From IMG/VR virus record IMGVR_UViG_3300021387_000484, positions 1-64,000 of that record: a DNA stretch of 64,000 nucleotides. One strand, 5' to 3'. Positions 29,315 to 53,880 of the stretch are shown piece after piece (positions within the stretch are counted from its first letter, which is position 1; each line of letters begins with the position of its first letter). Under the pieces are notes generated by a model, which worked only from the letters and a program-made list of their open reading frames with translations, was not told the origin of the DNA and did no database searches. The DNA comes from a virus. Lineage: Duplodnaviria > Caudoviricetes. The position numbers were made by a program, and so were the translations under genes.

Positions 29315-29355
29315 ATCTTCTCCCCTTCCCATATAAGGTCACTTACTGCGCCTCT

Positions 29356-29383
29356 ATCGTATCATGGCACATGGAAGTGTCAA
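29356..29383 (-). promoter_or_regulatory. Sigma-A-type promoter for the small Cys gene
   Basis: TTGACA-N16-TACGAT with a TGn extension in the intergenic gap. Confidence 0.65.
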
Positions 29384-29391
29384 TAACCCTG

Positions 29392-30567
29392 TCACGAAGT
29401 CTTTGCCCGCTTCTTCGAGTATTTCGATTCTTCAGGGTCCTGCCTTATCAGGGCGACTTTCAGCTTATGGTATTTACCACCATATTCATCCGTCGCTATT
29501 TCATGCCCGATGACTTGGAATGTGCACCCCCTCTGTAAAATAATTTCACATTCTGATGAGAAGTATTTCTGCTTCGATTTCCCATCCCACGAGCGCTTGT
29601 CTCCTAGCCCGTGACTTGAGAAAGGTTCAACGTACATCCCCTTCGTGCCTTTTGGGACATATATCTCCATACTTACGTTTGAATTAAACCCAGTTCCTTC
29701 TGAGGCTCCGGTACTGACAAATGCGTCGTCCGTACCCACTCTGCCAACCATGGATATATTGGACTCTGATGTATGATTGTCGGGAGATAAATATCCCTTG
29801 GGAAGCCCAAACATCTTCTCTGCCGCTTGCCTGTTAATGCCCCTGCGCAGGACCACGTCTTCTTGGAATTCAGATTTATCCAGTGCTTTGGTGACTCTGT
29901 CTATCTTCTCGTTTATTTCGGGTGTCTTTACATTTCCAGACCTCAGACTGTCATTCATATATGTGTACGCAGTCTGCGTGTAACTGTACAGGTCACTCTT
30001 GGTGTCCTCGTCAAGTTCATTCCAGACCCTTCCAGCCTGTGCTCTGTACTTGTCGTCAGCCTTCTTCTTCGTATCCGGGTTGAATGCTTTCCCCATTTTC
30101 TGCTGATTGATTGCCATGGCGGCTTTGTCGTCCTTGGTAAACTTGAAGTTGGGGTTCATTGAATTCGGGATAAATACCCGCACGTCTTTGCCGATATTGT
30201 TTTTGAAATCATCAATGTGAAGCATGCTTCCGTCTTCACTGCACTTGAAGTAATTACCCTCCTGAAAAGACTGATATAATTTCCCGCCATAAAGTATCTT
30301 CACATTAGCATCAGCTTTTGCCGTTTTAATGTCATCCATCGTCAGGCCGTGGGTCTTCGCGCTGTCTCTTCGTTTCTTTGAAAACGACGTAAAGTGCCCT
30401 TCCTTTGATATCTGGCGGTTGTGTTCTCCGCCACCCTCTGCACTGCCACCGACCTCACCCGGGCGTCCAGCATGGCCCCAGTTCCCAGACCCCTCACCGC
30501 CGTCAAATCGCCTGCGTCTGAGTGAGTGCCGTATTCGTATCAGTTGAATTTTCTTTGATAATTCCAT
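29392..30567 (-). CDS. Tagged ADP-ribosyltransferase, paralog 3
   Basis: RIRHSLRRRRFD plus GGEGSGNWGHAGRPG; LRRG, FVST, ECEIILQRG. Confidence 0.85.
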   Translation of the reverse strand: MELSKKIQLIRIRHSLRRRRFDGGEGSGNWGHAGRPGEVGGSAEGGGEHNRQISKEGHFTSFSKKRRDSAKTHGLTMDDIKTAKADANVKILYGGKLYQSFQEGNYFKCSEDGSMLHIDDFKNNIGKDVRVFIPNSMNPNFKFTKDDKAAMAINQQKMGKAFNPDTKKKADDKYRAQAGRVWNELDEDTKSDLYSYTQTAYTYMNDSLRSGNVKTPEINEKIDRVTKALDKSEFQEDVVLRRGINRQAAEKMFGLPKGYLSPDNHTSESNISMVGRVGTDDAFVSTGASEGTGFNSNVSMEIYVPKGTKGMYVEPFSSHGLGDKRSWDGKSKQKYFSSECEIILQRGCTFQVIGHEIATDEYGGKYHKLKVALIRQDPEESKYSKKRAKTS

Positions 30568-30577
30568 TGTCTTTCCC

Positions 30578-31759
30578 TCACGCAGACTTCTTCTTGGGCT
30601 TCTTCTTAGCCATCACCTTTTCGTACTCTGAGTTTGCGTAGTCCTGCCTCACGACGGCTACCTTTATCTTGTGCTTCACTGTTCCGTTTGCCTTAGTCAT
30701 CTCATACCCGATGACCTGCAAGGTCGTACCTCTTTGAAGAATCGTCTCACACTCACGGGAGAAGTCGCTCTGAGGGGAATGACCGTCCCAGTCAGTATCA
30801 CCATTCCCCATCTCTGAGAACGGTTCTGCATACAAGCCCTTCGTGCCTTTCGGGCACATGATTTCCAGTGATACATTTTTAAAGCTGAACCCGGTGCCCT
30901 GAGAAGAGCCACAGCTCATGAAGCCGTCGTCCGTGCCTATCCTGCCGACAAGGTTCATGTTGGACATCCGCATGTGTTTGTCAGGGTTTAAGTAGCCTCT
31001 TGGGAGCCCCAGCATCTTCTCTGCCGCCTCCTCGTCAATGCCCCTGTAAAGGACCACGTCCTCTTTGAATTCAGATTTATTGATTGCTTTTGTAATGGCA
31101 TTTATCCTCTTCTGCGTAAGACTGGTCGTATCGCTGTCGGCCCCGCGCAGGCTCTTGTTTATGGTCTTGTATCCGCTTGACGTGTAGCCTACCAATGCAT
31201 CTTTTGTGCCCTGAGGACAGCTGTTCCAGACTTCACCGGACTGTGCCCTGTACTTGTCGTCCGCTTCCTTTCTTGTATCGGGATTAAACGCTTTGTCCAT
31301 CTGCGTGCGGCTCAGCTTCATGGCGTTGCGGTCATCCTTGGTCACCTTGTAATTGGGGTTCATGCTGTTTGGAATGATGACCTTGACGGACTCGCCTTCC
31401 TTGAACTTGCGTATCTTACCCGTTTCCTTGCAGAAAAAGTTCGTGCCAATGGTATTGCGGTAGTGGTTCCCTTCGCTGTCCACGATGATGACATCCCAGT
31501 TATCCTGTGCCGCCTTCAGGTCACCGGCACTGAGCGCGTGCACCTGTGCCGCCTTTTTGCGTTCCCTGCTAAAAGATGTGAAGTTGTCTTGAAAATCCTT
31601 CTGGCGGTTGTGCTTCCCACCGCCTTCAGCGCTTCCACCCACTTCTCCGGGACGGCCTGCGTGGCCCCAGTTGCCTGAGCCTTCGCCCCCGTCCATGCGC
31701 CCTGCGAGCGACTTCCTTATGCGTTTCAGGCTCTTATACATGAGCTTTTCATCAAACAT
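30578..31759 (-). CDS. Tagged ADP-ribosyltransferase, paralog 4
   Basis: RIRKSLAGRMD plus GGEGSGNWGHAGRPG; LYRG, FMSC, ECETILQRG. Confidence 0.85.
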   Translation of the reverse strand: MFDEKLMYKSLKRIRKSLAGRMDGGEGSGNWGHAGRPGEVGGSAEGGGKHNRQKDFQDNFTSFSRERKKAAQVHALSAGDLKAAQDNWDVIIVDSEGNHYRNTIGTNFFCKETGKIRKFKEGESVKVIIPNSMNPNYKVTKDDRNAMKLSRTQMDKAFNPDTRKEADDKYRAQSGEVWNSCPQGTKDALVGYTSSGYKTINKSLRGADSDTTSLTQKRINAITKAINKSEFKEDVVLYRGIDEEAAEKMLGLPRGYLNPDKHMRMSNMNLVGRIGTDDGFMSCGSSQGTGFSFKNVSLEIMCPKGTKGLYAEPFSEMGNGDTDWDGHSPQSDFSRECETILQRGTTLQVIGYEMTKANGTVKHKIKVAVVRQDYANSEYEKVMAKKKPKKKSA

Positions 31760-31770: not shown

Positions 31771-32685
31771 TCACTTCGGCGTTTTAAAGGTCTCTTTCTC
31801 GAACACGGGCACGGCACAGCACCTGCATCCCGGCGCCTCTCCGGGGTTATACTTTTTGCCCGTATATACGCGGCCCCTTGACTTTGTCATGTACCAGTCA
31901 TCAGGCGGGTCATCCCACGAAAAGGTCTTCCCATCGAATGTCCTGTGGCATGGCCTTACCCTGTCGTCACGGCATGATATCCAGACGTATTTTTTTACGC
32001 CTGCCGCCTGCTGATACATCTTCATCATCCGCGCATTCAGGGAAGATATCGAATCCACCGCCGCGAACTGCCCACGGTTCATTCTCTGTTCAAGACGCTT
32101 TAGTATCTCGTACTCAAGGTCGTCTATATCCACGCCGCCCCTGTATGCATCCGCTATCAGGTTCTCTATCTCTAGGAGTGTTTCCATGGGGATATTGCGG
32201 ATATAGTTGAAGTTCTCCGATATCCACCTCTGTATCTCCTGCTCATACTGCCCGCCCCTGTAGTCGTCATCCGGGACATCCACACCCAGTGAATCCTTTA
32301 TCGCCTGTCTCCACTCGGCGATGGACCTGTCCTGTACCATCCTGCCGATTTTCCCTATCTTTTCTTCAAGGTGCAGTCTTGCAATGGACCTTGCCAGTGC
32401 GGATGCCATGCCGTACACCTTGTTCTTTAGAAACGACAGAAAGTCGGATATGCCGTCCTCGCGGGTGTCTTTTCGCATCTGCCTCTTGTAGGCCCTCAGG
32501 ATGTACGGAAGCTGTTTTTCCACCTGCTTCTGAAGGGCCTGAACATAGTCCCTGTTGATGCGGCGGTACTCCCGTTCCGCAGTGTAGGGATAGCGCGGGG
32601 CATACCTGCTACGGATACGCTTCTTGCGCCCAAATTTTGGCTGTATGGCGTTTTCCGCCCTGTTTTGATAATCTATACCATTCAT
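31771..32685 (-). CDS. MuF/SPP1 gp7-like minor head protein
   Basis: GVKKYVWISCRDDRVRPCH..DGKTFSWDDPP..PGEAPGCRC. Confidence 0.88.
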   Translation of the reverse strand: MNGIDYQNRAENAIQPKFGRKKRIRSRYAPRYPYTAEREYRRINRDYVQALQKQVEKQLPYILRAYKRQMRKDTREDGISDFLSFLKNKVYGMASALARSIARLHLEEKIGKIGRMVQDRSIAEWRQAIKDSLGVDVPDDDYRGGQYEQEIQRWISENFNYIRNIPMETLLEIENLIADAYRGGVDIDDLEYEILKRLEQRMNRGQFAAVDSISSLNARMMKMYQQAAGVKKYVWISCRDDRVRPCHRTFDGKTFSWDDPPDDWYMTKSRGRVYTGKKYNPGEAPGCRCCAVPVFEKETFKTPK

Positions 32686-35162: not shown

Positions 35163-35413
35163 CAACCTCTTCTTTTTGGCCTCCACCCGGCTTTCCACTT
35201 TGCCTTGTACTGGTTCAGGCTCTCCCTGTTAGCGCACAGGTCCTCGTCCGGGTCTTCAAGCTGTATCGGGTCATCAACCCAGCCGCATACCTCGCATGTG
35301 TCAAAAGACCCATCATAGGGGAATTCGTATTTCCCGCATACAGGGCACATATGCTGGCTGTCTTTCCTCATGTACTTTATCACGTCACCCCTCCCTTTGT
35401 TTGAGTCTGTCAA
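35162..35413 (-). CDS. CPCC-type cysteine-rich protein, candidate immunity protein
   Basis: CPVCG..FDTCEVCGWVDD..Q..DPD..AN..SL. The real start is probably a few codons downstream of 35413. Confidence 0.75.
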   Translation of the reverse strand: MTDSNKGRGDVIKYMRKDSQHMCPVCGKYEFPYDGSFDTCEVCGWVDDPIQLEDPDEDLCANRESLNQYKAKWKAGWRPKRRG

Positions 35414-38400
35414 AATATGCGTTAGCCTTGCTCAGGTTGGATTCGCCCGTCTCTTTATTGTACTTTGCTTTATAGTAACTCAGGAAGAAACTGCCCGGAA
35501 TCCCAAAAGCAATCTCGCCCGTTTTTCTATTGAAGCGAACAACAACAGGCTTCATGCTTGTTCCCGGTGCCGGTTTACGGAGATATCCGTCAATATCACC
35601 CCCGACAGGCTGTTTTATAAAGTCGATTGCCTTTTTGTTATACTCCTCCTGACTACTGACACCAACTTCCACCCAGTGGTCCTTATGGTCATCCTCGCAC
35701 TCGGTATTCTTCATCCCGGTGCACGGGACGTTCTCGCCGTATGGGGACGGGTCATCTATGGTGCCTTTTCTATAGGGGTCCGTTTCTTCCTTCTTCTCAG
35801 GAGTGCTGTCCTCTGGCTTTGGTTCCTCTTTTTTGGGCTCCTCTGGCTTAGGTGCCTTGCTTTCTGGCTCAGCCTTTGTCTCAGGCGCCTTAGCCTCAGG
35901 TTCAACCTTAGCTTCTGTTGGCTTTTCGGTACCCTTTGCCTCTTCTGGCTTCCCGGAAGGGGCAGGTCCCTTTGTCTCAGTGGTGCCCTTTCCACCTGTA
36001 GTGATAACGGAAGCCTTCCCGTTCTGCACTACATATATCGGTTTTTTGTGGACGTGGCGTATCTTGGACCTTCTGCGGGGCTTCTTCTTTTTTTCCTCGG
36101 TTTTTGCCTCAGAAAAGTCCTTGCCTTTGGCCCAGCCGCCTGCGCCGCCCAGTGCCTTCCCGTTCTCATCCAGCGGGATATGCGCACCCTTCTCAGTGGT
36201 TATCCACTCAGCAGGCTCCTCGTCGCAATGTACTATGTCCCTCGCTACAATGATTGTAACATTGCCGCAGACAGAGTCAAGTAATTTCTCGGAAATATAT
36301 TTGTTTCCGCATAACCACAACTTGCTCATCAAGCCATTTCGGGTCATAGGCGCATGTTTTTTCGCTTTGTAGGCTTTTCCTCCGATTACGCCGTCACTGC
36401 GGTTCGGTCTCCCGATGATGAGCACCGGTATCGTTTCAATCCCGGCTTTGTACGCGGCTACGGCCCTGTGCCGCCCTTCCTGTCCCATGTCCTTGTAGTT
36501 CAGGTATGGAAGGTCGAACTTCACGCCCTTCTTCATCTGCTCGGCATACTTGTCCGTGGTCTTTTCATCAACTGCACCCATGGTGCTTTCCATAGTGCCG
36601 TTGTGGAAAATCTCATAGGCGCACCGCTCAAGGTACTCCCTCGGAGACATCTCTACAATCCTGCCTTTGCCGTTCTCAAGGTATTCGTCTCCGAAAGAAT
36701 TGCTGGTCTTGTCAAGCGTGAAGCCCTCATAATCCTCCTGCTTGGCGTCTTTAAGCTTGTTTGGCTTATAGGCCGCGACCTGACGCTTGTGTTCTTGCTC
36801 TTTCATCTTGTCGAGCTTTTCCGACGCCTCATCCCTAGCTTTTCTCTGCTTATGCCAATCTTCTTCGACCTTTGATAATTCTTCTTTGAGCCTTTCCCCT
36901 TTCTTGGTGTATATCCTCGGCTTTTTCCCTATCAGTGACTGGTACTCATCTTCCTCGTCCCACTCATCTTTGGGCTTCGGCCTGCTCTCAGCCTTTATGG
37001 CTTCTTCAAGTACTTCGCGCTTAGCCCACAGCTCATCGGCTTTTTCCCATGATTCTTTATGGGCGGCGGCTACGTCCTTAAACGCTTTCGTATCCCTGTA
37101 TGAATGTACCGGCAAAAAGTCGGTTAACTTCCTTTTCCCGACTTCTGGCGTGGGACGGTGTTCAATGGTGGGTTCGCTCTTCGCATGAGAAAAGTCCTCT
37201 CCCTCAAGGTCGCCGCCGTTCACCGCCTTGCCTTCTTCATTCAGGAGTATATGCGTGCCGTTTACGGTTATCCAATCCTCGTCATAATCACCGATGTCAA
37301 AGTCATCAATGAGTTCATCAATGGGTTCGTCTTCAAAAGAAGCATCAGTCCTGTTGCGCCTGCGGATGTCCTCAAGCCTGCTAAGCTTTGACTCAAGCTG
37401 TAAATCAAACTCGCCTTCGCTGTCCGCTTTAGTCTCCTGAACGTCATTGGTCAATACCCAGCCGACGACCTTGCCGTCCTGTATGGCTTCAACCTTACCG
37501 TCTTTTGCCGGGCGGAAAGTGATAATCCCTTCTTCAGCAGAATCCTTGTTCTGCCTGCCGTCAAGGATGATGGTCTTGGTCCTGTTCAGGATAATAGTGT
37601 AGGAAATCTCATCAGGATTTGTGGCGTATTCGGTGTTATACCTTATCGCATCGTACCCCATCGCCGCCGCATATACGCCGATGTTCATGAACTTTTGCCT
37701 GATAGCCATGGAAGACTTGTCCAGCTGGTCCAGCGCTTCGGCAAGTTTCCCGTCTGCCTTTTCTTTTATGCCCTTGCCGATAGCTTCCAGTTTGTCCAGC
37801 GTACTATCGTCAAAGGATTCTGCGGCCTCTGCCATTTCGCTAAATGACACACCGCTTCCAGCCGGGTCCGTATTATACTTTGTGTATGTATACGCCTTTT
37901 CGCCGTACTGCTCCTTTACCTTGTCAAGTTCCCCGTCTATGCAGTTCTGGCTAATCTTCCTTCTCTTCTCAACGCTCATTGTCCCCCAGTACTGACTCTC
38001 GGCCTCTTTATAGTCGACAATCTTTGCACTCGGGTCCAGCGTCATTGTCTCGGTATAGGAAACAGGGCTCTTTGTACCTTCCTGCTTAAAGCTGTCTTCG
38101 TACTTATCATGGTAGCCCTGTATTTCTTTTTTGACACCGTCGGTCATCTGCCCCGTATAGCTTGAGGCTGTATACATGCCCTGCCCCAGAGCCTGCCCGC
38201 CGTAACACTCCACGTAAAACTCGCCGCCGTACAGGGCGTCCCTGTAGGCATCCAGTGTCTTCTGGTCAGACGCCATGTATATACGTTGTGCTACCATGCC
38301 GCTTGCCTTCACGGCTTCGTCAAACTCTTTCTGAGATACAACCTTGGGAAGACCGTCGAACCCCTGCTTATGGATAACGGTAACTATATCAGGGTCACCC

Positions 38401-40814
38401 CTGTAGTTCTTTGAAATATCCTTTCCGTTTACGACCTTGTGGCCACCCGGCTTTGATGCAGTGCTCTTAGGTGCCCGCTTCTGGCTCTTCGCTTCCTTGA
38501 ACGACTTGCCTTTTAGCTTTCCGCCGCTCATGGCCTCGCCGTTCTCGTTCAACAGGACGTGCGTGCCTTTGATGGTCACCCAGTCATCGTCGTCTTCTCT
38601 GGCAGGGGATTGATAATCGTCAGTATAAACGTGCCCGATGGCGCGTCCTTCCCTTATGGCGTCTATCTTCCCGTTCTTGCCGGGCCTGAATGTAATGGTG
38701 CCCCTATCCTCCTCATCCTTGTGGTTTCTGCTGTCTTTGATGATGGTCTTTGTACGATTGAGAATGACTGTGTAGGTGGCATGTTCCTTGTCACTTCCAA
38801 CCCTGACCGCATCATACCCTAGCGCGGCGGCGTAAGCGTTGATGTCACCAAACCGTGCCCGTAACTTCATGGAACGTTCTTTAAGCAGGTCTTCATACCT
38901 GTCCAATAGGTCATAGGTTATATCATCAATCATTTCTGCCATGTCTTCACCTATGGCAGATTCGGCCTTGCGGCTTTCGCGTTCAGAGACTGCCGGGTCA
39001 CCGCACATGCTCCTCGCATACAAAGCCGCATCGGGTCCGTATTCTTCCTCAATCTCACGGATGCCATCCGCGACCATGCCCTTATCAAAGTCAATGCTTT
39101 TAGAGTTAAACTTTCCGAACCACTTTTCCCCAATGTCTTTGAAGTCTGCTATCTTTGCGCCGGGGGCAAGCGTCATGTCCTCAATGACATAATACGGGTC
39201 AGTTGCGGCATGCCGTCTTGCATAGCCGTTCACTTCGGTTTCAACCTCTTCTGTGCCCTTTCCCGTGTAATCAGTGACAGTGTACATGCCTTTTCCGAAC
39301 AGTGCCCCGCCTTCGCATTCCACGTACCAATCGCCGTTGTAGAGTGCGTCCTGATACGCGTCAAGGACTTCCTGAGAAGAAGCTGAATAGGCTCTCTTCG
39401 CAACGACGCCGCTCTCTTTCACCGCCCTGTCAAACTCTTCGTCTGAGACGACCTGAGGCAAGCCGTCAAAGCCCTGCGCACGCATGACAGACTTGATATC
39501 ACCGTCACCATCGTATGAGTCAAGGATGTTATTTCCACTTACCGGCCTTCGTGTTTTTGGCTCTTCCCTTTTGGGAGTATTCCCGGCTTCTCCTTCCTCA
39601 GCCCCTTTCATCAGCTCAGCAAAAGGGTCGAACTCGTCGGGGTCGCCGCCTTTCATCGCATTGACCACATGTGGGTTTCCCTTATCCGGTTCACCCTCTT
39701 CATTGATATGAACTTTATGTCCATTCTTCGTAGTTATCCAGCGGTCTTCACCAGCGTCTCTTCGCCCTCTGCCGTCACCGTCTTTCCGAAGCGTGTCTGC
39801 GAACTGGCCCTCATCACCGTTTATCCATGCAACCTTTGACAGCGGTATCTTCTTGGAGTAGACCTTGCCGCCTTCACCGCCCGCGTACTGCTGTGCCTGA
39901 ATCCTGCTTGTTGAGACGAACACGCCCTGCCGAATCGGATATGAGGAATAGACCGTAATCTTGCCGGTCTTCTGCGCCTTTTCTGCATCAGCCTTTGAAA
40001 AATCACCCCATGCAAAGCTGTCACCGTCGTCTTCGGTCAAAACCTCATCCCACGTCTTTATGTCGGATGGCTTCCTGATACCGACGTGATAATCGTCAAG
40101 CATCGGATTGTTTTCCTGAATAATCTTATACTGCGCGACCTTCTCTTTTGGCTGGGTCCTCAGCTCGTGCTCAAGTTGTATTCTTTCTCTCTGAGCCTTG
40201 GCTTCTTTTTCCGCTTTTCCCCTGACCTGCCGCTCTCTGCTTTTTCTGGAAGCCTCTTCCTGCTTCTGCTTTTTGTGGGCAAGCCATTCTTCCTTCGTGC
40301 CCTGCCAGTCGGCCTTCAGCATCTCAATCTGGGTCTTTATCTTCGACTTTGCCATCAGGCCCTTGGTGCCTTCAAGCTCTGTCTCAAGCTGTTTTATCTT
40401 GGCCTCTTTATCTGGGCCCGATATCCCGCTACCGGCGGTTTTGTCAACCATCGACTCAATGACTTTCGAGTTACCTTTGTCGGGCACGCCCTCTTCATTT
40501 ATATGGACTTTGTGATTGTTCTTGGTCGTTACCCAGCGGCCCTCTTCGTCTGCGCCATCTTTTCTCTGTCCGCTGTATTCAGCCCACATGGCTTCGACCT
40601 TCTCAACATCGTCACAGTCTCTGGGCTTTACCCCCTCACTGTTCTTCCACTGAGCAAAGTCCCTCTCGGAGTCGTCGTCCTCGAACTTGTCAAGGTTCTC
40701 TTCCAGCCACTCATCGTAGGCATTGTCCATATGGACGGAGTCGGCTCTTTTGTCTTCAGCACGGTAAGCGAACACGAATGCCATTACCGCCTTATTGAAT
40801 TCCTGCGTGGTCAT
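35385..40814 (-). CDS. Polyvalent cargo polyprotein (~1809 aa) with five tag-payload cassettes
   Basis: AAGGAGG RBS before MTTQEF; five W(I/V)T tags; ART-like, duplicated GxGMY ART-like, ParB-like (EGRHR) and C-terminal nuclease-toxin-like domains. Confidence 0.75.
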   Translation of the reverse strand: MTTQEFNKAVMAFVFAYRAEDKRADSVHMDNAYDEWLEENLDKFEDDDSERDFAQWKNSEGVKPRDCDDVEKVEAMWAEYSGQRKDGADEEGRWVTTKNNHKVHINEEGVPDKGNSKVIESMVDKTAGSGISGPDKEAKIKQLETELEGTKGLMAKSKIKTQIEMLKADWQGTKEEWLAHKKQKQEEASRKSRERQVRGKAEKEAKAQRERIQLEHELRTQPKEKVAQYKIIQENNPMLDDYHVGIRKPSDIKTWDEVLTEDDGDSFAWGDFSKADAEKAQKTGKITVYSSYPIRQGVFVSTSRIQAQQYAGGEGGKVYSKKIPLSKVAWINGDEGQFADTLRKDGDGRGRRDAGEDRWITTKNGHKVHINEEGEPDKGNPHVVNAMKGGDPDEFDPFAELMKGAEEGEAGNTPKREEPKTRRPVSGNNILDSYDGDGDIKSVMRAQGFDGLPQVVSDEEFDRAVKESGVVAKRAYSASSQEVLDAYQDALYNGDWYVECEGGALFGKGMYTVTDYTGKGTEEVETEVNGYARRHAATDPYYVIEDMTLAPGAKIADFKDIGEKWFGKFNSKSIDFDKGMVADGIREIEEEYGPDAALYARSMCGDPAVSERESRKAESAIGEDMAEMIDDITYDLLDRYEDLLKERSMKLRARFGDINAYAAALGYDAVRVGSDKEHATYTVILNRTKTIIKDSRNHKDEEDRGTITFRPGKNGKIDAIREGRAIGHVYTDDYQSPAREDDDDWVTIKGTHVLLNENGEAMSGGKLKGKSFKEAKSQKRAPKSTASKPGGHKVVNGKDISKNYRGDPDIVTVIHKQGFDGLPKVVSQKEFDEAVKASGMVAQRIYMASDQKTLDAYRDALYGGEFYVECYGGQALGQGMYTASSYTGQMTDGVKKEIQGYHDKYEDSFKQEGTKSPVSYTETMTLDPSAKIVDYKEAESQYWGTMSVEKRRKISQNCIDGELDKVKEQYGEKAYTYTKYNTDPAGSGVSFSEMAEAAESFDDSTLDKLEAIGKGIKEKADGKLAEALDQLDKSSMAIRQKFMNIGVYAAAMGYDAIRYNTEYATNPDEISYTIILNRTKTIILDGRQNKDSAEEGIITFRPAKDGKVEAIQDGKVVGWVLTNDVQETKADSEGEFDLQLESKLSRLEDIRRRNRTDASFEDEPIDELIDDFDIGDYDEDWITVNGTHILLNEEGKAVNGGDLEGEDFSHAKSEPTIEHRPTPEVGKRKLTDFLPVHSYRDTKAFKDVAAAHKESWEKADELWAKREVLEEAIKAESRPKPKDEWDEEDEYQSLIGKKPRIYTKKGERLKEELSKVEEDWHKQRKARDEASEKLDKMKEQEHKRQVAAYKPNKLKDAKQEDYEGFTLDKTSNSFGDEYLENGKGRIVEMSPREYLERCAYEIFHNGTMESTMGAVDEKTTDKYAEQMKKGVKFDLPYLNYKDMGQEGRHRAVAAYKAGIETIPVLIIGRPNRSDGVIGGKAYKAKKHAPMTRNGLMSKLWLCGNKYISEKLLDSVCGNVTIIVARDIVHCDEEPAEWITTEKGAHIPLDENGKALGGAGGWAKGKDFSEAKTEEKKKKPRRRSKIRHVHKKPIYVVQNGKASVITTGGKGTTETKGPAPSGKPEEAKGTEKPTEAKVEPEAKAPETKAEPESKAPKPEEPKKEEPKPEDSTPEKKEETDPYRKGTIDDPSPYGENVPCTGMKNTECEDDHKDHWVEVGVSSQEEYNKKAIDFIKQPVGGDIDGYLRKPAPGTSMKPVVVRFNRKTGEIAFGIPGSFFLSYYKAKYNKETGESNLSKANAYFDRLKQREG
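36253..36280 (-). promoter_or_regulatory. Sigma-A-type promoter embedded upstream of the last cassette
   Basis: TTGACT-N16-TACAAT with a TGn extension, encoded as LDSVCGNVTI. Confidence 0.55.
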
Positions 40815-40892
40815 CCGCGCCTCCTTTTGCCAAACAACTGACAGGTATCTGTACAAATAAAAATCAGCCCTGTGACAGGCCGATTTTCCCCA

Positions 40893-41717: not shown

Positions 41718-42905
41718 TCACGAAGCTTTTTCCCCTTTTTTCTTCTTCTGCGCTTCGGGCAAACTCTTGAGCTCTTCTATTCGTTTCGGGTCGTATTTGT
41801 AATTGGCATTGTCTAGGAACATTTGATAAAGCTCTTGATTGTGTATTGTGAGTCCTTTCCCACCACCACCGCTGGCAATAAGAACCGGGGGTTCACCCTT
41901 CTTCATGTTTGCATACAGCTTCACATCGTCGAAATCTTTGGCGATTTCAGGAAGTATTTTAGATATCTCTTTATGTGTGTGTATCAAAAGGCCATCTTTA
42001 ACGCTTCTCTCTCTTGCGGTATTTGCTATAATGGCATCTTCTATTGGCTTAAACACATAAACGCCATTAACAGTATGCCCCGCCTCTTTGGCCTCTTTGA
42101 TTTTCTTCCTCATTTTCTCGACGCTTCCGTCGCCTGTACCATCTACCAAGACATTATAGCCATTCTCCTGTGCTATTTTTGTAATACGCTTTGCAAGAGC
42201 GCTCGATTCTTCGTGCACCGGTGAAGGATGGTCAGGGTCATATTCTGGCATAGGCTTCTTGCAAGCATCCGGGTCAACAAGAATGCGTTCGTCTTTGCCC
42301 GGCATATTTAGGTTTTCCGCTTCGTTCTCGACAACATAAGATTTGCCGCTTGCTGGACCGCCCCCCATAAAAGTAGTGACAGGCTTCCCTTTAGCTTTCT
42401 TAACCCCTCTAAACGTATTGTCTATAATCTTGCTATGAAGGGCCTCCCTTTCTTCGGTCCATTCTCCATTGTCATTTGTGTGCATGCGCATGGTTTCGCC
42501 CGAATCGGAAGCTTTATCTTTTGGGTCGACATGCGTCACCCCATAACCGTTTTTAAATGTATGCTCTCGCTTATAACCACCTATCACTTTCGCCTTAGAA
42601 GAAACAGAACTGGACACATACTTTTTTGCACTGGACGCGCCTTTTGTGGCCTTGGACGAAGAAGAACCAGTCTCCTTTTCTGAGCCTTCACCCAAGGCTT
42701 TGAGCTGGCCTCCAATAGGCTTCTTGTTCTCATCAACCGGGATGTGATTTCCTTTGACCGTAATCCATGAATCAGGTTCTTTTTTATCCATACGCCTGTG
42801 CTTGACGTGCTTCCTGACTCTGCTTATCACATACCCATCTTCCCTGCGCTGTTTGAGGGACCGGCGTATCCGACCAAGCTTCGTATCTAAAGTTGTTCTC
42901 TTCAT
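41718..42905 (-). CDS. Tagged zeta-toxin-family P-loop kinase
   Basis: Two leaders (RIRRSLKQRRED, RVRKHVKHRRMD) plus WITVKGNHIP; MGGGPASGKS, VDPD, HEESS, LVDGT. Confidence 0.8.
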   Translation of the reverse strand: MKRTTLDTKLGRIRRSLKQRREDGYVISRVRKHVKHRRMDKKEPDSWITVKGNHIPVDENKKPIGGQLKALGEGSEKETGSSSSKATKGASSAKKYVSSSVSSKAKVIGGYKREHTFKNGYGVTHVDPKDKASDSGETMRMHTNDNGEWTEEREALHSKIIDNTFRGVKKAKGKPVTTFMGGGPASGKSYVVENEAENLNMPGKDERILVDPDACKKPMPEYDPDHPSPVHEESSALAKRITKIAQENGYNVLVDGTGDGSVEKMRKKIKEAKEAGHTVNGVYVFKPIEDAIIANTARERSVKDGLLIHTHKEISKILPEIAKDFDDVKLYANMKKGEPPVLIASGGGGKGLTIHNQELYQMFLDNANYKYDPKRIEELKSLPEAQKKKKGEKAS

Positions 42906-45556: not shown

Positions 45557-45775
45557 TCAGAGCATAATACCCTCTTTAGGCGGGTCAACGTAATAGTCCC
45601 ACGGATGCTTTTCATCGACGCATCGCTTGTAGAAAGCCTCCGTCTTTTCGTCTGGCTTTCTAAACCACGGGTTCATGTTCCCCGCGCCGAACATCCCGAT
45701 ATAATCAGCTGTGTGCGGAAAGCCCTGTTCCCTCATCAAATCAGCTATGGCCTTATCCCTCTGTGTCAGTTTCAC
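45557..45775 (-). CDS. Small hypothetical protein coupled to the portal fusion gene
   Basis: Overlaps the portal stop codon (GTGA). Confidence 0.55.
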   Translation of the reverse strand: MKLTQRDKAIADLMREQGFPHTADYIGMFGAGNMNPWFRKPDEKTEAFYKRCVDEKHPWDYYVDPPKEGIML

Positions 45776-48700
45776 TTCTTGAAAGCCTCCTTGTAAGTAG
45801 CTTCCGCCGCCGCATACATATTGGGCGTTATCGCCTTGAGCAGTTCCAACTCACTCTCATGCCCGAAAGCCTTGAGCTCACAATAGTTTGCCCAATACTC
45901 TAAACATTTTGCGGACGCTCTCCCGCCCCCAGATGGGGTCAGCCAATAATCACGGCTATGACCACCGTAAAACATCAACCCACCACTGTATTCCTCTGTC
46001 AGTGCACTCACCGCATCACTGACCGCGCTGAGGTCCTGAACTATCTGCTGATGCCCCCATTCCATAAACTTTTTAAAGGCGTTGTCGCGTTCCTCGTCGT
46101 TTGCGAACCACCCATCACCGTTTGTCTTAAAACCGATGACTTTTGCCATCGCTTCAAAGTCTTCCTTTGCCCTCTTTCCACCATATGGCACAAGGTGTTC
46201 AAGGTTCATCGAAGCAGATGTTATTCTGATTTTCTGTCCGTCCATTGTGTCGTATTCTATGTCCACAGCACCGTCGTCAAGAGCATGCCCCATCTCATGG
46301 ATGAATGTCTCTGCCCCTCGTATTGAACCGAAATAGACTTTTCCGTCCATTGGGTCAAAGTATGACGTTTGTCCCTCTTGCAACTTCTCGATATCCGTTT
46401 TTCTGAGGGTTTTTTCATAGACTGCCCTGACTTCATCAGGCATCGCCTTATAAGCTTCCCTCAGGCGCTGGACCTCATGCTGGCTTGCACCGTTGAGTCC
46501 GAAATTGATATCAAAGAAATCACCTTCTACCTTCTGCCCGGACAGCATGGTCATGTTATCGCACAGGTCTCCGTCTTCAGATTCCCAGTCATTGTTGCCG
46601 CAATACCGGTAATTCCTGCCGTCCTTGCCAACTATGACGGTGCCTTCGCCGACCTCGGACAGGTCTTCTTTCTGCATGGTCACCTGTGCTTTTTCAAGGA
46701 GCGGTTTGTCTGCCTCCCAAGGGGAATCTTGGTTCCTGAAGTTCTTTGCGGCGTGCTTCCTTTGCGCCTCCTCTTTTTCCTCCTCTGATTTAGCGGACTT
46801 GCTTATGTATGCCCGCGTTTCAGCTTCTCTGTCAAGAAAGATGTCCGTGATATCCCCGGACTTCCACGAACCGCTCTCGCCAGTCCCGTACTCGCGCCAC
46901 CTTCCTGAGTCCGTCTTGATGTATCTATAGGATTCATCCCCGTCGGATGATTCAGGTACAGTGATAATCGAGCCTGTTTCTAAGGTATCAAGCAGTTCTG
47001 CCACCTTCCTCTGGTCATCCCTGCGGGACTCGCTGGTAGATTTTTCCGCAATATCAGACAGTTCCTTGTTCAGTTTGCTCTTGGAGGGTTGGAAGAGCGG
47101 CATCTTCGTTTTTCCCACCTTTTTGGTGGTATTCTCACTTTCCGCATCCGGGAAAGACATGCCCTTCAGGTCGCCGCCGTTCTGAGCGGTCCCCTCATCG
47201 TCTATCAGGATGTGTGTCCCGTTGACGGTAATCCACTGCTCATCGTCGGCATGGATGTTCTTTCCAGTAATCGTCTGCACCAGCTTCTGGAAGCCGACCT
47301 CGAAAGGTCTGAACAGCCGCCCTGAGTGTTCTATCTCCTCAATGGCGGTAAACCTCGCCTGATGCATTTCCTCTTCGTCGCACTTTGGCGTCCCCTCATA
47401 CCTGACACATAAGAACAGGTCGGGGCACAGGCCGTTCGTCTGCTTCTCGCCCTTGCCAAATGGTATCAGCTCCATGGGCGTTATGCCGAATTCTTCCTGT
47501 GTCTCACGGATGGCCGCCTGCCCCGGTGTCTCACCTTCTTCGATATGGCCGCCCGGACCGCAGATAAGGTGTTCGCCGTCGCCCGCGCCACGGACGCCTG
47601 TGAGTACCATGCCGTCCTTTATCACGTATACGCCGACTGCGCCCTGAGCGCCTGCGTCCATGCACGCCTCTTCCCTGACGCTGTCGCCGTAGGCTTTATA
47701 CCCGGCCCCCGTGAAGGCTTTGTAGCGCTTGCCGTCCCTGCCGACTATCTCCTCGGTGTAAAGGTCGCTAATAGCCGGTTTTTGGCCGTCCTCGTCCTCT
47801 CTGGATGCCGTTCTGTAATCCCTTATAGAGATATCCCCCTTGCGGGTTCGGACCAGCCTAGAGCCGTGTGGCGGCCTTACAGGCACATTGCCAAGCCATG
47901 CGCTCCTGAGTGTGTCTTCAGGTTCCTCTGTGCCGTGCCATGCTCTCTTTAAGGTGTCGTCTTCTGGCTTAACCCCAAACCACGCATTGCGCAGGGTATC
48001 AGCCGGGTCCTTCTTTACCTCGGGCTCTTCTTTTGGCTCTTCCTTGGGGGTGTTCCCAAGCCACGCGTTCCTGAGGGTGTCGCCGGGCAGGGGAGCCTTA
48101 GAGGGATTGATAATCCTCTCTGCCCCTTCCTGCTCGCCGCCCTGTGCTGTGATTCCAAGCCATGCGTTGCGCAGGGTATCCTCAGGCTCCGCGTCCTGAT
48201 TCTTCTCTTCCTGTGGCTTTTCGGCCTCAGGCTTCTTTGCCGCAGGCTCCTTAGGCAGTGCCTTTGACCCTTCTGGCTTTATCATTTCAGACTTACCGGC
48301 AAGCTGTTGTTTCGCTTCATTTGCCTTTGCCTGTTCCTTGCCGCTCATATCTACCGGCAGTTTCGTGGCCGCTGGCGCCGCCGCAGGTGCGTTCCCGCCA
48401 AGGTCTGTATCCTTAGGTTTGCCGCCCTGTGCAAGCTCTGGCTTTACGCCCGCTTTCTTCGGGTCTGCCTTGGGCTGTACCTTGCCAGACGGAACTCCGC
48501 CCATAGGGTCTTTTTCACCCGCTGGCATCCCCTCTGGCTGTTGTGCTTTTGGCTTTTCTCCGCTCTCTGGCGCGCCCTCAGCAGATGCTCCTTCAGGCGG
48601 CATCATACCCGGCATACCGCCCGGTGCTCCGCCTTCTGCGCCCGGCATACCGCCGCCCATACCCGGCATTCCTTCCATGCCCGGCATACCGCCGCCCTCT

Positions 48701-50136
48701 GCCTGCTTCTTCATGGGGTCGTTCTCTTCCAACTCTTCCTCGGTATACTCGTCAAGCATGGTCTCGACATCGAATTCCTCGGAATCAGCAAGCTTCTTTC
48801 TGACCTCGGACGGGTCAAGGGCCTGCATCTGGACGTATACCATAGCGGTATTTGCCTTGGTGTTCTCCACCTGTGCCCGCATCTGGTCAAGGGATACTTC
48901 CTCCTGCTCAGACAAGGACCACAGTGGGTTAAATTCCACCTTTATCGGCGGGACTTCGTCTATCTCACCGGACAAAACCCCCGCCTGAAAGATGATGGAA
49001 AGAAGATACCTCAGGTTCTTCTTGAGCATCCGCTTCTGGATGCGCTCCACGTAGTTGTACCAGTTCTCAAGGTCGCCCATGCCTGTAGAGTTCATCCCCG
49101 CCGGTGACCTGCCGAACAGGATGGTCTGCGGAATGGATGTCAGTGCCGACAGGAAGTTGCATGTCGTGTCGATGACCTCGGAAACGCCCGTGAATGAAAA
49201 TTGCCTGAAGCTGTAATCCTCTCCCTCGCTGTCAATGGTGATGGAGTTCAAAAGCCCCCTCGCCATGTCGATGGTCTGAAGGCGCCTCAGCACTCTGTCC
49301 TCGCCTTCTTCGGTAGCAAGCTCAGCAGACAGGTCCTTCATGGAGTAGACCGCCTGTATGGACCTGTCGAGCATCTTCGGTGCAGTGCCGTGGGCTATCT
49401 CCGCATCCCTTATCGCTTTTTTGAGACGCACGTACTCGGGCATGCCCCAAAGCTGATAATAGGAATTGGACGTGTTCTCGGGCAGTATCCCGTTCTGGAA
49501 TACAAGGCATCTGGAATCGTGCACCCTGAAATTCCCGTACTTGCTGAACACGTCATAGTATTCAGGCATCCCCAGCCTGCTACCTCTGGTCCCGAACGGG
49601 TCATCCGGGTCATAGGAGAACATAGTGCTGTAGTCTGGCTGTATCAGGGACCGGTCATACACCCGTATATCGTCTATGGACTTGATGTTCCTCCAGTCAA
49701 GGGGCTCGTCAACGCCCCTGCCGTCATTAATCATCAGAACGGCTATGGAACCTCCAAAGAGCCTTGCCCACTTGATGCAGGTCATGGCCGTCTCTTCCCA
49801 GTCCAGTTCGTCAAGGGCCTCCATGTAGAAGTCCTCTATCTCTTGGTCTTTTACGTCCTTGAGCTCAAACCCGTGCTTTATCGCCTCCTCTGCGGGAGCG
49901 TCAATGATTTTTGAAAAAAGCCCGTTCCCCTCGTAGAACATGGTCAGTTCGTCGTCGGGAATCGGCGGCTCCTGCTTGAATTCATACCGTTCCGAAGAAT
50001 CTCTCGAAGTGCCGTACTTTGTGAGCAGGTTGACGTAACCGTCCATCCGGTAGGGCCTGACGACTCTGCCGGTCTGCTTCCGTATTAAATCTGTATAGCG
50101 TCTCAGTGAGTCTATCTTTTCCTGCCTGCTTGCCAT
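45772..50136 (-). CDS. Portal protein (DUF1073-type) fused to linker, NUDIX hydrolase and zincin peptidase (1454 aa)
   Basis: N-terminal ~470 aa: KIIDAPAEEA..WARLFGG..IPQTILFGRSPAGMNSTG..DLENWY..FNPLW. Nudix box GGHIEEGETPGQAAIRETQEEFG; WITVNGTHIL tag; HEMGH. Confidence 0.85.
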   Translation of the reverse strand: MASRQEKIDSLRRYTDLIRKQTGRVVRPYRMDGYVNLLTKYGTSRDSSERYEFKQEPPIPDDELTMFYEGNGLFSKIIDAPAEEAIKHGFELKDVKDQEIEDFYMEALDELDWEETAMTCIKWARLFGGSIAVLMINDGRGVDEPLDWRNIKSIDDIRVYDRSLIQPDYSTMFSYDPDDPFGTRGSRLGMPEYYDVFSKYGNFRVHDSRCLVFQNGILPENTSNSYYQLWGMPEYVRLKKAIRDAEIAHGTAPKMLDRSIQAVYSMKDLSAELATEEGEDRVLRRLQTIDMARGLLNSITIDSEGEDYSFRQFSFTGVSEVIDTTCNFLSALTSIPQTILFGRSPAGMNSTGMGDLENWYNYVERIQKRMLKKNLRYLLSIIFQAGVLSGEIDEVPPIKVEFNPLWSLSEQEEVSLDQMRAQVENTKANTAMVYVQMQALDPSEVRKKLADSEEFDVETMLDEYTEEELEENDPMKKQAEGGGMPGMEGMPGMGGGMPGAEGGAPGGMPGMMPPEGASAEGAPESGEKPKAQQPEGMPAGEKDPMGGVPSGKVQPKADPKKAGVKPELAQGGKPKDTDLGGNAPAAAPAATKLPVDMSGKEQAKANEAKQQLAGKSEMIKPEGSKALPKEPAAKKPEAEKPQEEKNQDAEPEDTLRNAWLGITAQGGEQEGAERIINPSKAPLPGDTLRNAWLGNTPKEEPKEEPEVKKDPADTLRNAWFGVKPEDDTLKRAWHGTEEPEDTLRSAWLGNVPVRPPHGSRLVRTRKGDISIRDYRTASREDEDGQKPAISDLYTEEIVGRDGKRYKAFTGAGYKAYGDSVREEACMDAGAQGAVGVYVIKDGMVLTGVRGAGDGEHLICGPGGHIEEGETPGQAAIRETQEEFGITPMELIPFGKGEKQTNGLCPDLFLCVRYEGTPKCDEEEMHQARFTAIEEIEHSGRLFRPFEVGFQKLVQTITGKNIHADDEQWITVNGTHILIDDEGTAQNGGDLKGMSFPDAESENTTKKVGKTKMPLFQPSKSKLNKELSDIAEKSTSESRRDDQRKVAELLDTLETGSIITVPESSDGDESYRYIKTDSGRWREYGTGESGSWKSGDITDIFLDREAETRAYISKSAKSEEEKEEAQRKHAAKNFRNQDSPWEADKPLLEKAQVTMQKEDLSEVGEGTVIVGKDGRNYRYCGNNDWESEDGDLCDNMTMLSGQKVEGDFFDINFGLNGASQHEVQRLREAYKAMPDEVRAVYEKTLRKTDIEKLQEGQTSYFDPMDGKVYFGSIRGAETFIHEMGHALDDGAVDIEYDTMDGQKIRITSASMNLEHLVPYGGKRAKEDFEAMAKVIGFKTNGDGWFANDEERDNAFKKFMEWGHQQIVQDLSAVSDAVSALTEEYSGGLMFYGGHSRDYWLTPSGGGRASAKCLEYWANYCELKAFGHESELELLKAITPNMYAAAEATYKEAFKK
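47890..48180 (-). repeat. Five DTL(R/K)xAW(L/F/H)G peptide repeats in the portal linker
   Basis: DTLRNAWLG, DTLRNAWLG, DTLRNAWFG, DTLKRAWHG, DTLRSAWLG. Confidence 0.85.
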
Positions 50137-50156
50137 GCTCTCTCCTTACGGCGCAT

Positions 50157-50186
50157 GAAAAAAGGAGGCTGTGCGCCTCCCTCTTT
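50157..50186 (-). terminator. Rho-independent terminator before the portal gene
   Basis: ggaggc-gcaca-gcctcc followed by TTTTTT. Confidence 0.7.
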
Positions 50187-50225
50187 CCCGTATCTTATGT
50201 ATGTGCCCTCGCGGGCCGTTCCGTG

Positions 50226-51179: not shown

Positions 51180-53360
51180 TTACAACATATTTCTGAGGCT
51201 GAACGTGGGCTTCGCAAGTTCATTGAACGCATCAGAGCTGGCATCTACCATGTCATCATGCGCGCCCTGCGGAAAGCTCTCAAGCTGGTTGAAGAACATC
51301 TCATTCCAGTCCGCCGCAAGAACATACACGTTGCCGACCTGCCACTGCGCCGCAAAAGGGGTCGCCCTCTGTTCCTTGCTACCCGATACGGGGTACGCCT
51401 TTACCGGGAACCCTGACAGCATCTTGATAAAGTTCTGCGCAAGAATCTTCCCCGCCGCGCCCGGGTCCTGAGGAATGCGAATCTTGCACTTTAGTCCGTA
51501 TTTCTTCCTGTCTGAGACAGCTGTGTTGTATATCAGCTTTTCCACTTCTGCGGCAGGCAGTCTCTTGTTGATAACGTCCATGACCACGACCGACTTGTCT
51601 TTCCTGAGCCCCAAGAGGGCGCCAGCCGTGTAGTCGGGGTCGCCGCTCTCCTTGTCTGCCGTAGCCGCTATATCCCATGCCCGGCAGTACAGCTCTAAAT
51701 CGGATGGAAGGTCTAGGAGCACCTGAACCTGAGTCCTCTTGAAATACCTTCCTGCGGCAGACTTAATCTTCCAGTTGCCCTTTAAGAGCCGTTCGCGCTC
51801 GACCTCTGGAAGAGACTTTAAGGACGCCAGATACTGCGGGTTGACCTTTAAGAGCTCCTTATTGTCGTAGATACTCGACATGATGAAGGTCACTGACCTC
51901 GGCTCATCCTTTTCCTCTTCGGTCTTTAAGTCGAACCGTTCCCACAGCTCTTCCTTCGTATCAGCCCAGTTGATAATCCCGTCACGCCTGACGAACCACC
52001 GAATCTTCCCGCTCCGTTCTGGTATCGGATACCCTGTATCTTGGTCTATCCACCACTCGATGAACTTGGCTACCCACGAGTCCGCATCCGGGTTGCAGGT
52101 CGCCCTTATAAAAGGCTTTACGCCGCACGTGGAACGGTTACGGGACATCATGTAGAAGAATGTTGCTTCATCAAAATGAGTTAATTCATCGAATCCTATT
52201 TCGCAAAGTTGTGAGCCCTGCCAGTCGTCGACACCGCTGTAATTCTCTATATGAGCAAAGGTCACCTTCGATATGGGGAGTCCGTCATTATCATTGAATT
52301 CCCACGATGTGTTTACCTTCTTCATCTGAGCATTCGGTATCAAGCCGTAGATAGATTGCGCAGTGTCCCAGAGACCGCCGGGTGAGAAGACCTGTTTGAA
52401 CGTTCTTCGGAAAATCGTGCAGTTGAACCCCTGTACACCCTTATACATAAGGGGTGTCAAGAGAAGCCCATGCGTGTTGTGGGTGACTACAAAGTCCTTG
52501 GTCACATACAGCCCGTCAGGCTCGTCCACTCTGATGCACTGGCACTCCTCTTCCCCACAGGGTTTGATTGATAGGATTCTTCTATTTAGGTTTCCCCGGG
52601 TCCTGTCCTTCAGAACTGCCTTCATCCGTGGGAACAGCTCGGAATCATCCTTTGTCAGGATGTCGACCAGAAAGCCCCCTGAGGCTTCCCGCTTTATATA
52701 GGCCATGCCGCCTATCGACCAGACCAGCCACTGCATGTCTTTTGCAAGCTTTTCTGAACTGGTGTATAGCCCGCATCTGCCTTCTTCGGATATCCGCCCG
52801 CCCTTATCCATCAGTCCCTGTATGAGCGATACACGGTCTTGTGGCGGGGCGTATTTGTACCGGACAGGAATGTGCTTTGCCTTGTCCTCAACGCACTCAT
52901 CCGCAAGATATGTCCCTAGGGCGTATGGTATCAATGAACCCGCCGGTCCCCTGTTTTCGAACTGAACAGCCCCGCAAAGGGGGGTTTGATAATCTTTACC
53001 CTGAGCCAGCCCGTCGATGATGGCACTTGTGGTCATCACCTTTCCGTTTACGAACCACAGGTGGTCTTTTGTACACCTCGTCTGCGCCCCGTCCTCGAAC
53101 AGCACTCTGTAGACAGCCTTTTTGCCCTGAGGGAAGGTCTGCACGACCGTGGTCTGCCTTCCCGTCGCCGATATGACCTTGTCACCGGCCTTTATGGACC
53201 CCATCGGCCTGAATCCAAACGGTGTAAGAACGGGTTCGCTAAGCGGCTGTGCCTTTCCCCCGCCCGCCGAACCGCCGAATATGCAGATATCAGCCTCTGT
53301 CGCAAGGAAGTCCCACTGTGGTCCCGGCTGTGGCCTAATGGTAATCTTATTCTTCGCCAT
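51180..53360 (-). CDS. terL: Terminase large subunit containing an intein
   Basis: Walker A GGSAGGGK|T split by the intein; Walker B IGFDELTHF; RATCNPD; nuclease RAWDIAA..HDDMVDA. Confidence 0.92.
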   Translation of the reverse strand: MAKNKITIRPQPGPQWDFLATEADICIFGGSAGGGKAQPLSEPVLTPFGFRPMGSIKAGDKVISATGRQTTVVQTFPQGKKAVYRVLFEDGAQTRCTKDHLWFVNGKVMTTSAIIDGLAQGKDYQTPLCGAVQFENRGPAGSLIPYALGTYLADECVEDKAKHIPVRYKYAPPQDRVSLIQGLMDKGGRISEEGRCGLYTSSEKLAKDMQWLVWSIGGMAYIKREASGGFLVDILTKDDSELFPRMKAVLKDRTRGNLNRRILSIKPCGEEECQCIRVDEPDGLYVTKDFVVTHNTHGLLLTPLMYKGVQGFNCTIFRRTFKQVFSPGGLWDTAQSIYGLIPNAQMKKVNTSWEFNDNDGLPISKVTFAHIENYSGVDDWQGSQLCEIGFDELTHFDEATFFYMMSRNRSTCGVKPFIRATCNPDADSWVAKFIEWWIDQDTGYPIPERSGKIRWFVRRDGIINWADTKEELWERFDLKTEEEKDEPRSVTFIMSSIYDNKELLKVNPQYLASLKSLPEVERERLLKGNWKIKSAAGRYFKRTQVQVLLDLPSDLELYCRAWDIAATADKESGDPDYTAGALLGLRKDKSVVVMDVINKRLPAAEVEKLIYNTAVSDRKKYGLKCKIRIPQDPGAAGKILAQNFIKMLSGFPVKAYPVSGSKEQRATPFAAQWQVGNVYVLAADWNEMFFNQLESFPQGAHDDMVDASSDAFNELAKPTFSLRNML
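52476..53252 (-). mobile_element. Class-3-type intein (259 aa) with a degenerate LAGLIDADG domain
   Basis: Starts with Ala (AQPL); block B TKDHLW, block F CQCIRV, ends VTHN followed by Thr; the W-C-T triad is present. Confidence 0.85.
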
Positions 53361-53880
53361 GGTATTCTTCGGCTTCTACGACCCTTGTCCCTTCTATTCT
53401 CTCCTGCCTCTTGTTGTGGGGCAGTACGATGACCACGTCCGTATCCGACTCGTTGTGTGCCTCAAGCTGTACTTCCTGCCTCTGCGTCCATACTCCGCGC
53501 TTTCTGTTGTTGAGCCAGTACATGATAGCCGTAGTATCGGGCGGCACCTGCTTGACCTTTGTCTTATGCCCGACCACTTTGGTGTTGCCATCGTCGTCAA
53601 CGGCATAGACAAACTCCGTCTCCTCGGTAGTGCATCCCAGTGCCCTCTGGTACAGGCTCTTCTCTACGTTCGCGTCGGCCTTGGCTTTAGCGTCTTCTAT
53701 CGCCTCCCGAAGCTCAGGAAACGTGCTCTTCCACCTGTGGAGGGTCCACCGTGCGATTCCGAAAGCCTCGGCTATCTCTTCGTCTGTAGCCCCCTTTACC
53801 GCCAATGACCATGCCCAGTCAACGTGGTACTCCGGGTTGTATTTGGATTTGTTGCCTGACCTGCCAGCGACACCTGACAT
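53347..53880 (-). CDS. terS: Terminase small subunit (HTH)
   Basis: GATDEEIAEAFGIARWTLHRWK..VEKSLYQRALG..PPDTTAIMYWLNNR; directly upstream of TerL. Confidence 0.85.
   Translation of the reverse strand: MSGVAGRSGNKSKYNPEYHVDWAWSLAVKGATDEEIAEAFGIARWTLHRWKSTFPELREAIEDAKAKADANVEKSLYQRALGCTTEETEFVYAVDDDGNTKVVGHKTKVKQVPPDTTAIMYWLNNRKRGVWTQRQEVQLEAHNESDTDVVIVLPHNKRQERIEGTRVVEAEEYHGEE

Follow-up and report, generated by a model that had tools for sequence, protein, structure and literature searches.

A portal gene of a 100-kb gut phage that extends in frame into Nudix hydrolase and zinc protease domains

The window analysed here, a stretch of 64,000 nucleotides (nt), is part of IMG/VR virus record IMGVR_UViG_3300021387_000484, a single metagenome-derived viral contig of 100,088 bp that is rated 99% complete. 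In this 100-kb gut phage the reading frame of the portal gene (45772–50136, minus strand) runs on through a Nudix hydrolase domain and a zinc protease domain, and the gene encodes a portal-cargo fusion of 1454 amino acids (aa). The portal-Nudix fusion is not new in kind, and is a long example of a published class of head-packaged cargo enzymes. The gene is the only portal gene of the phage, and its product probably belongs among the portal-anchored polyvalent cargo proteins described previously, the enzymes being carried in the head, released by proteolysis and delivered together with the DNA. The cargo consists of a low-complexity linker and repeats, the Nudix domain, a junction tag and a C-terminal module of 445 aa (residues 1010–1454), the second half of which is zincin-like. 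Coordinates of these parts are given below as positions in the window, all on the minus strand.

The portal-cargo gene and its parts

The gene is one open reading frame (ORF) of 1454 codons, running from an ATG to a stop codon at 45772–45774. Its first 480 residues (48697–50136) are a portal domain. Pfam PF06381 (Phage_portal_3) covers residues 64–423 (E 7e-71, 239 bits against a cut-off of 33.8), using profile positions 3–354 of 357, and the PHROG portal families extend to about residue 480, with PHROG portal 15528 at E 5e-187. Solved portals are matched as well (9jlf, E 2e-25; 9l01, E 2e-24; Pam3 8hds, E 3e-18; E217 gp19 8fvh, E 2e-10), and each of these is deposited with at least 12 chains per entry. 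A first-pass annotation, made from the sequence alone, had placed the end of the portal-like region near residue 470, very close to the limit found here. No other match to the portal region occurs in the 100-kb genome. The position of the gene is between the terminase genes on one side and the genes for MuF, the head maturation protease and the capsid on the other.

A single metagenome-derived contig with a low-complexity linker in the gene raises the suspicion that an assembly or frame error has fused separate genes, and the first-pass annotation had itself named this as the case that would undo its reading of one continuous frame. The interval 45700–50200 was compared with contigs from public runs of other studies. 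One contig of 141 kb, from another study, covers the whole interval with 117 substitutions and 0 gaps; a further study covers it gap-free in three overlapping pieces, and no insertion or deletion across the interval is listed in any run compared. The sole length variant, in a goat-gut metagenome contig, has 73 nt in place of 52 nt at 48219–48272 (+21 nt, in frame). It falls within the linker, shortly before the first DTLRNAW repeat, and linker length therefore differs among strains with the frame unbroken. Two contigs on record encode the identical 1454-aa protein, and an orthologue of 1390 aa (P0003) has the same order of parts, with a portal 90% identical and a C-terminal module 52% identical to those described here. 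Fusion of a portal to the module is seen again in P0024 (1922 aa) and P0013 (1082 aa), and a portal-Nudix gene for 828 aa is present in an isolate, phage FP_Brigit. Given the gap-free independent contigs, the same protein on two contigs and the conserved order in P0003, an assembly error is excluded for practical purposes, and the frame is continuous as first proposed.

The Nudix domain occupies residues 829–959 (47260–47652) and is matched by Pfam NUDIX at E 4e-13. Its Nudix box, GHIEEGETPGQAAIRETQEEFGI (residues 863–885, 47482–47550), fits the canonical pattern GX5EX7REUXEEXGU, and its G, E and REx2EE positions do not vary among 8 relatives. The AlphaFold2 model of residues 829–959 is a confident Nudix fold (alpha/beta/alpha; predicted local distance difference test, pLDDT, 85–95). 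A Foldseek search with this model finds the MTH1, MutT, BdRppH and ApnA hydrolases at E about 1e-7, with a probability of 1.00 to MTH1 and MutT and a TM-score (target) of up to 0.84. The nearest matches in both sequence and fold are thus MutT/MTH1, RppH and ApnA hydrolases, not the two-domain ADP-ribose pyrophosphatases. Matches to NCBIfam equivalogs are all far under their cut-offs, the best being MutT at 35 bits against 148, and BLASTP aligns only the Nudix box with T4 NudE (E 9e-4, 43 aa). Judged by its closest matches the domain appears to be MutT-like, and nothing points specifically to ADP-ribose as its substrate.

The C-terminal module has two subdomains. The first (residues 1010–1214, 205 aa, 46495–47109) is predicted to be mixed alpha/beta (AlphaFold2 pLDDT about 90) and gives weak fold matches (Z about 4), with no clear known relative. 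The second (residues 1215–1454, 45775–46494) is zincin-like both by its HExxH motif and by its fold matches. It contains HEMGHALD (residues 1280–1287, 46276–46299), in which HEMGH spans residues 1280–1284, and, further on, GGH..Y (45943–45966) and EYWANY (45883–45900). In an alignment of 24 module sequences that share 21–46% identity, the H, E and H of HExxH are invariant, as are D365, H384, Y388 and E404 (module numbering), and the Asp three residues past HExxH is nearly so. The catalytic motifs of both enzymes are intact and invariant. A profile search finds no zincin domain elsewhere in the genome, its single occurrence being on the portal.

The module has no sequence match in Pfam, NCBIfam, PHROG or the PDB. 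Its AlphaFold2 model is confident (pLDDT 90.9), and Foldseek against the PDB finds nothing at E <= 0.001, only weak zincin matches, the best at E 0.07. With VIA-align 2, over 48,161 chains, the catalytic domain of anthrax LF ranks first (Z 6.8, 176 residues aligned), followed at ranks 2 and 3 by PPEP-2 and PPEP-3 (Z 5.7 and 5.6), values below the level for a safe claim of shared fold. A profile search of PDB sequences picks out the LF helix HEFGHAVDD at a non-significant E of 0.75, and the ESM Atlas yields, besides unnamed clusters, a lead to Peptidase_M90 at 0.89. LF and the PPEP proteases (MEROPS M34) are thus the best structural matches. They share with the module an HExGHAxDD-type helix and, further downstream, an invariant Glu with E-aromatic-aromatic-A surroundings that is possibly the third zinc ligand, but the Tyr-to-Glu spacing is longer here, the 205-aa N-terminal subdomain is extra, and there is no significant sequence similarity. 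In our reading the module is a zincin peptidase whose fold is LF/PPEP-like, and not a member of M34 at the sequence level; it is to be filed in this way because no sequence or profile similarity to that family is significant. Several candidate assignments were discarded. M34 membership by sequence finds no Pfam, NCBIfam or PHROG match and only the LF profile at E 0.75; Pfam LPD39 reaches 15.2 bits against a cut-off of 27, over 29 residues (1217–1245) outside the HExxH region; and a sub-threshold RuBisCO_small match in Pfam is noise.

An exhaustive HMMER search of 1.84 billion representatives finds only 57 clusters that carry the module. In nearly every full-length match it reaches the C-terminal end of its carrier, and carriers range from 438 to 1922 aa. 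Three others are portals: P0003, P0013 (portal and module) and P0024, which has a portal, a Nudix domain, further regions outside the scan and then the module. Of the scanned carriers that are not portals, P0017 has an ADP-ribosyltransferase domain and P0004 an EGRHR (ParB/Srx-like) motif recognised by eye, and in several shorter carriers the module is preceded only by a short N-terminal stretch and a tag. It is a rare, uncatalogued, always-C-terminal family, absent from the families and papers searched, as are the junction tags and the linker motif described next.

Between portal and Nudix domain lies a tether of about 350 residues that is predicted to be disordered. It starts with a low-complexity linker (residues 481–655, 48172–48696) rich in G, P, A, K, E and M, of which residues 481–560 are GMPG-rich and residues 561–655 A/K/E/P-rich. 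The length and sequence of the linker differ among relatives. Within this variable sequence a linear motif, GGNAPAAAPAATKLPVDMS (residues 580–598, 48343–48399), is conserved, with the consensus AP(A/T)AAP(A/T)ATKLPxDMS; of 122 portal-Nudix relatives, 116 have KLPxD[ML]. No second copy was found in the genome (for example in capsid or scaffold genes), so that the motif is unique to the portal gene, and APAATKLPxDMS is a candidate recognition or cleavage site. Five DTL(R/K)xAWxG repeats follow (residues 653–749, 47890–48180); DTLRNAW repeats are found only in the closest portal relatives, in 3–8 copies. The pre-Nudix segment (residues 761–828, 47653–47856) aligns clearly only with P0003 and has no confident fold. 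In an AlphaFold2 run on residues 640–1010, the repeats and the pre-Nudix segment (residues 640–828) gave no confident structure (pLDDT about 40), and disorder is predicted for them.

Between the Nudix domain and the module, after an acidic run, is a junction tag, here called the W-tag, WITVNGTHILIDDEGTAQNGGDLKGMSF (residues 968–995, 47152–47235), recognised by its recurrence in neighbouring genes and by its consensus. It opens with WITVNGTHILI from residue 968 (47203–47235), and AlphaFold2 models it as a weak beta-hairpin. The consensus is an acidic run followed by W-I/V-T-V/I-N/K-G-T-H-I/V-x-L/I-N/D-E-E-G..GG.LKG..F. A second tag, the GSGN-tag, has the consensus (R/N)-x-D-GGPGSGN(F/H)GH.G.PG..GGSAP and takes the same position in homologous proteins. 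Of 29 carriers, 25 have one or the other detected some 30–90 residues ahead of the C-terminal module, and by this comparison of sequences the two are interchangeable junction tags before the module in most of its carriers. A conserved Asp stands ahead of GSGN-type tags in 46 of 50 cases, and acidic runs stand ahead of W-tags. The W-tag also occurs in the neighbouring 693-aa and 1823-aa genes of the genome, and in head-module genes nearby it is again these junction tags that mark off the payloads. The linker motif, tags and repeats were not found in Pfam, nor the tag strings in the searchable literature. A profile of leader plus W-tag marks at least eight head-module genes (23645–50136, minus strand), namely ORFs of 270, 591, 104, 538, 1823, 395 (zeta-toxin-like) and 693 aa and the portal gene, which suggests one shared junction or addressing element for the whole cargo array. 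In a related portal of 1144 aa (1694–5125, plus strand, of contig L009) a GSGN-tag follows the Nudix domain, and a junction-like motif, GVPGMKWGEHKG, at residues about 1010–1023 gives a sub-threshold match to Pfam DUF7211.

Most of these parts had been recognised in the first-pass annotation, which listed a GMPG/PAEK-rich linker with Trp repeats, an intact Nudix box at ~47480–47560, a WITVNGTH tag at ~47233 and an HEMGH zincin at ~46290. All four are recovered at matching positions, and domain searches and structure prediction uphold the portal, Nudix and HExxH module calls.

Relatives and published counterparts

The fusion is conserved far beyond this phage. Among proteins of 800–2545 aa, at least 4,736 clusters carry this portal at E <= 1e-20, and the best 120 of these are all portal plus NUDIX, many of them with an ADP-ribosyltransferase as the C-terminal tip. 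Other tips among the clusters scanned are a zeta-toxin kinase, a glutamine deamidase and a phosphoribosyltransferase. In 13 related viral contigs the portals are 490–1144 aa long; most are portal plus Nudix, the tips again vary (DUF4258, another HExxH domain), and those of 490–512 aa have no cargo. From the cluster survey and the related contigs, the portal-Nudix architecture is standard across gut phages and prophages of a very large group, with a polymorphic tip. The first-pass annotation had proposed a comparison of portal C-termini in related phages. Most of the related portals do have the portal-Nudix core; the annotation had not recognised that such a fusion is a known and very common architecture.

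The closest cultured relative is the portal of Faecalibacterium phage FP_Brigit (AUV56649.1, 828 aa), with 54% identity over portal plus Nudix. It has the same order of portal, linker, Nudix, tag and tip. Its linker is shorter and without DTLRNAW repeats, its junction is of an HPRDxNGQF type instead of a W-tag, and a tip of ~120 aa takes the place of the zincin module. This tip is 47% identical (E 9e-25) to residues 1704–1816 of the free 1823-aa ORF of the phage studied here (35385–40856, minus strand). Tips move between anchors, since the same payload is found on the FP_Brigit portal and on a free polyprotein of 1823 aa. The complete genome of FP_Brigit contains no copy of the zincin module, and in another relative (G004) the module is on a separate ORF of 420 aa. 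Both observations weaken the idea that the zincin is a universal cargo-releasing enzyme, and because of them it cannot be the general one. With its two intact enzymes and a relative cultured on Faecalibacterium, the gene is a clean as well as a long example of its kind.

Phage Nudix domains fused directly to MuF, portal and capsid protease have been described, as proteins that are probably packaged and injected, by Iyer et al. (2022, Viruses 14:1977; PMC9503650, section 3.5.2), who assign the head-protein fusions to a T4 NudE-like clade. The gene described here agrees with these in its direct fusion of Nudix to portal, in being a late, head-module gene beside the terminase, and in the predicted packaging and injection. 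It differs in that likeness to T4 NudE is limited to the box, the best matches being of MutT/MTH1/RppH type, and in its additional 350-aa tether and 445-aa zincin module. Polyvalent proteins were defined by Iyer et al. (2017, J Bacteriol 199:e00245-17; PMC5512222), who report portal fusions with PBECR, 2H and InPase, treat the zincin metallopeptidase (MPTase) as a hub domain of these proteins, propose zincin-mediated processing and predict virion packaging and host delivery. As in those proteins, domains of disparate activity (here portal, Nudix and HExxH module) are joined in one polypeptide in a virion context, with fusion to a structural domain, and the Asp three residues after HExxH, which marks the phage-type MPTase clade of that study, is found in this module too. 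Unlike them, the module has no match to Pfam LPD or MPTase above threshold, and its junction tags are not in the searched texts.

Internal proteins and Alt of T4 offer a further comparison. They too are head-packaged effectors that include an ADP-ribosyltransferase, and the head module of the phage studied here encodes four paralogues of such an enzyme together with a head maturation protease. The T4 cargo, in contrast, is free, has an N-terminal capsid-targeting leader, is cut by gp21 and is ejected with the DNA. Here it is covalently joined to the portal, and its copy number would therefore be set by the ring. A literature search found no experimental study of portal-fused cargo. The published picture is unchanged by the present gene, which adds one uncatalogued C-terminal zincin family and shows that the portal-Nudix design is common in gut phages. 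Such proteins matter in that head-packaged effectors are the first phage proteins to face host defences.

Packaging, release and alternative readings

The probable course of events can be outlined from these comparisons. The first 480 residues would build the portal ring, a dodecamer in solved relatives, with the C-terminal end facing the capsid interior. The tether would then hold the MutT-like Nudix domain, the beta-hairpin tag and the 445-residue module with its zincin second half, placing the enzymes inside the head at the portal vertex. Twelve copies per virion may be expected from homology to solved portals with at least 12 chains per entry. Release would be logically required, since the portal remains with the capsid. 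Proteolysis in the tether or at the tag could free the enzymes, the candidates for this step being the head maturation protease (DUF2213) and the zincin of the module itself, and the linker motif and junction tags are concrete candidate cleavage sites. Freed enzymes would leave with the DNA and act early in the next host, the Nudix domain perhaps on a nucleotide or an RNA 5' end, the zincin on the cargo itself or on a host protein.

The first-pass annotation had likewise seen the enzymes as head cargo on an inward-facing portal C-terminus, which matches the published reading (PMC9503650, PMC5512222); its details of delivery go further than the present results. It had also suggested release at xxD sites. 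These sites correspond to the conserved Asp before GSGN-tags and to the acidic runs before W-tags; cleavage there is unsupported, no cut having been observed. We know of no Asp-specific phage head protease.

Several points weigh against head packaging and delivery. A portal-tethered enzyme cannot exit uncut, and the linker motif and tags are no more than candidate cleavage sites. FP_Brigit, with a complete genome and a portal-Nudix fusion, has no zincin module. Assembly of the full-length protein, its cutting and its entry into the host are predictions from genes and not from proteins, a single vertex is merely assumed to have room for twelve folded cargoes of ~100 kDa each, and the sequence does not specify the substrate of the Nudix domain. 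The action of the extension might instead be confined to the producer cell or to the prohead as it matures, with the portal as a late expression vehicle of fixed stoichiometry and nothing injected. Its enzymes would then work in the cytoplasm or in maturation, for example by processing cargo polyproteins at the tags, and be clipped off afterwards or left in the spent capsid. One documented fate of zincin-bearing head proteins is of this kind, namely the cleavage of P1 DdrB before packaging (PMC5512222), and with one zincin module in the genome against at least eight tag-bearing genes, a trans-processing role inside the head is conceivable. The tips of relatives, however, are host-directed effectors (ADP-ribosyltransferase, zeta-toxin kinase, glutamine deamidase, BECR-like DUF4258) that would have little purpose if undelivered, and the same tips are found on MuF-type and free cargo proteins, so that confinement to the producer cell is unlikely.

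Some portals, such as that of P22, possess long inward C-terminal structures, and about 350 residues of the present extension are low-complexity or repeat sequence of variable length. It could on these grounds be mainly structural, an internal plug, a spacer or a DNA-organising body at the vertex, with enzyme domains that are incidental or decaying. We consider this improbable in view of the Nudix catalytic residues that are invariant in 8 relatives, the invariance of HExxH and four further residues in 24 module sequences of 21–46% identity, the high confidence with which both domains are modelled, and the related portals of 490–512 aa that do without cargo. Delivery of head-carried enzymes remains the reading we prefer. 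A more novel reading, which we hold to be rather doubtful, is that the portal-anchored zincin is a cargo-processing peptidase, present in about twelve copies at the exit channel, which cuts the W-tag junctions between payloads of the neighbouring polyproteins, and its own tether, during maturation or cargo exit. If so, the W-tag and GSGN-tag would be an interchangeable junction code, by which any payload could be appended to a portal, a MuF protein or a leader.

Neighbouring genes of the head module

Just upstream of the portal gene are the terminase genes TerL (51180–53360, minus strand, an ORF of 726 aa) and TerS (53347–53880). Matches to the N-terminal ATPase of TerL stop near residue 162 and the main terminase matches restart at ~296, leaving an insert of ~130 aa between them. 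Downstream of the portal are the genes for MuF, the DUF2213 head maturation protease, a cement protein and the major capsid protein. The region between the portal and capsid genes also holds an ORF for a zeta-toxin-like kinase (395 aa; 41718–42905, minus strand) and four tandem ADP-ribosyltransferase paralogues (PF03496, 382–406 aa; 26588–31759, minus strand). The MuF gene, at 31771–32685, is small.

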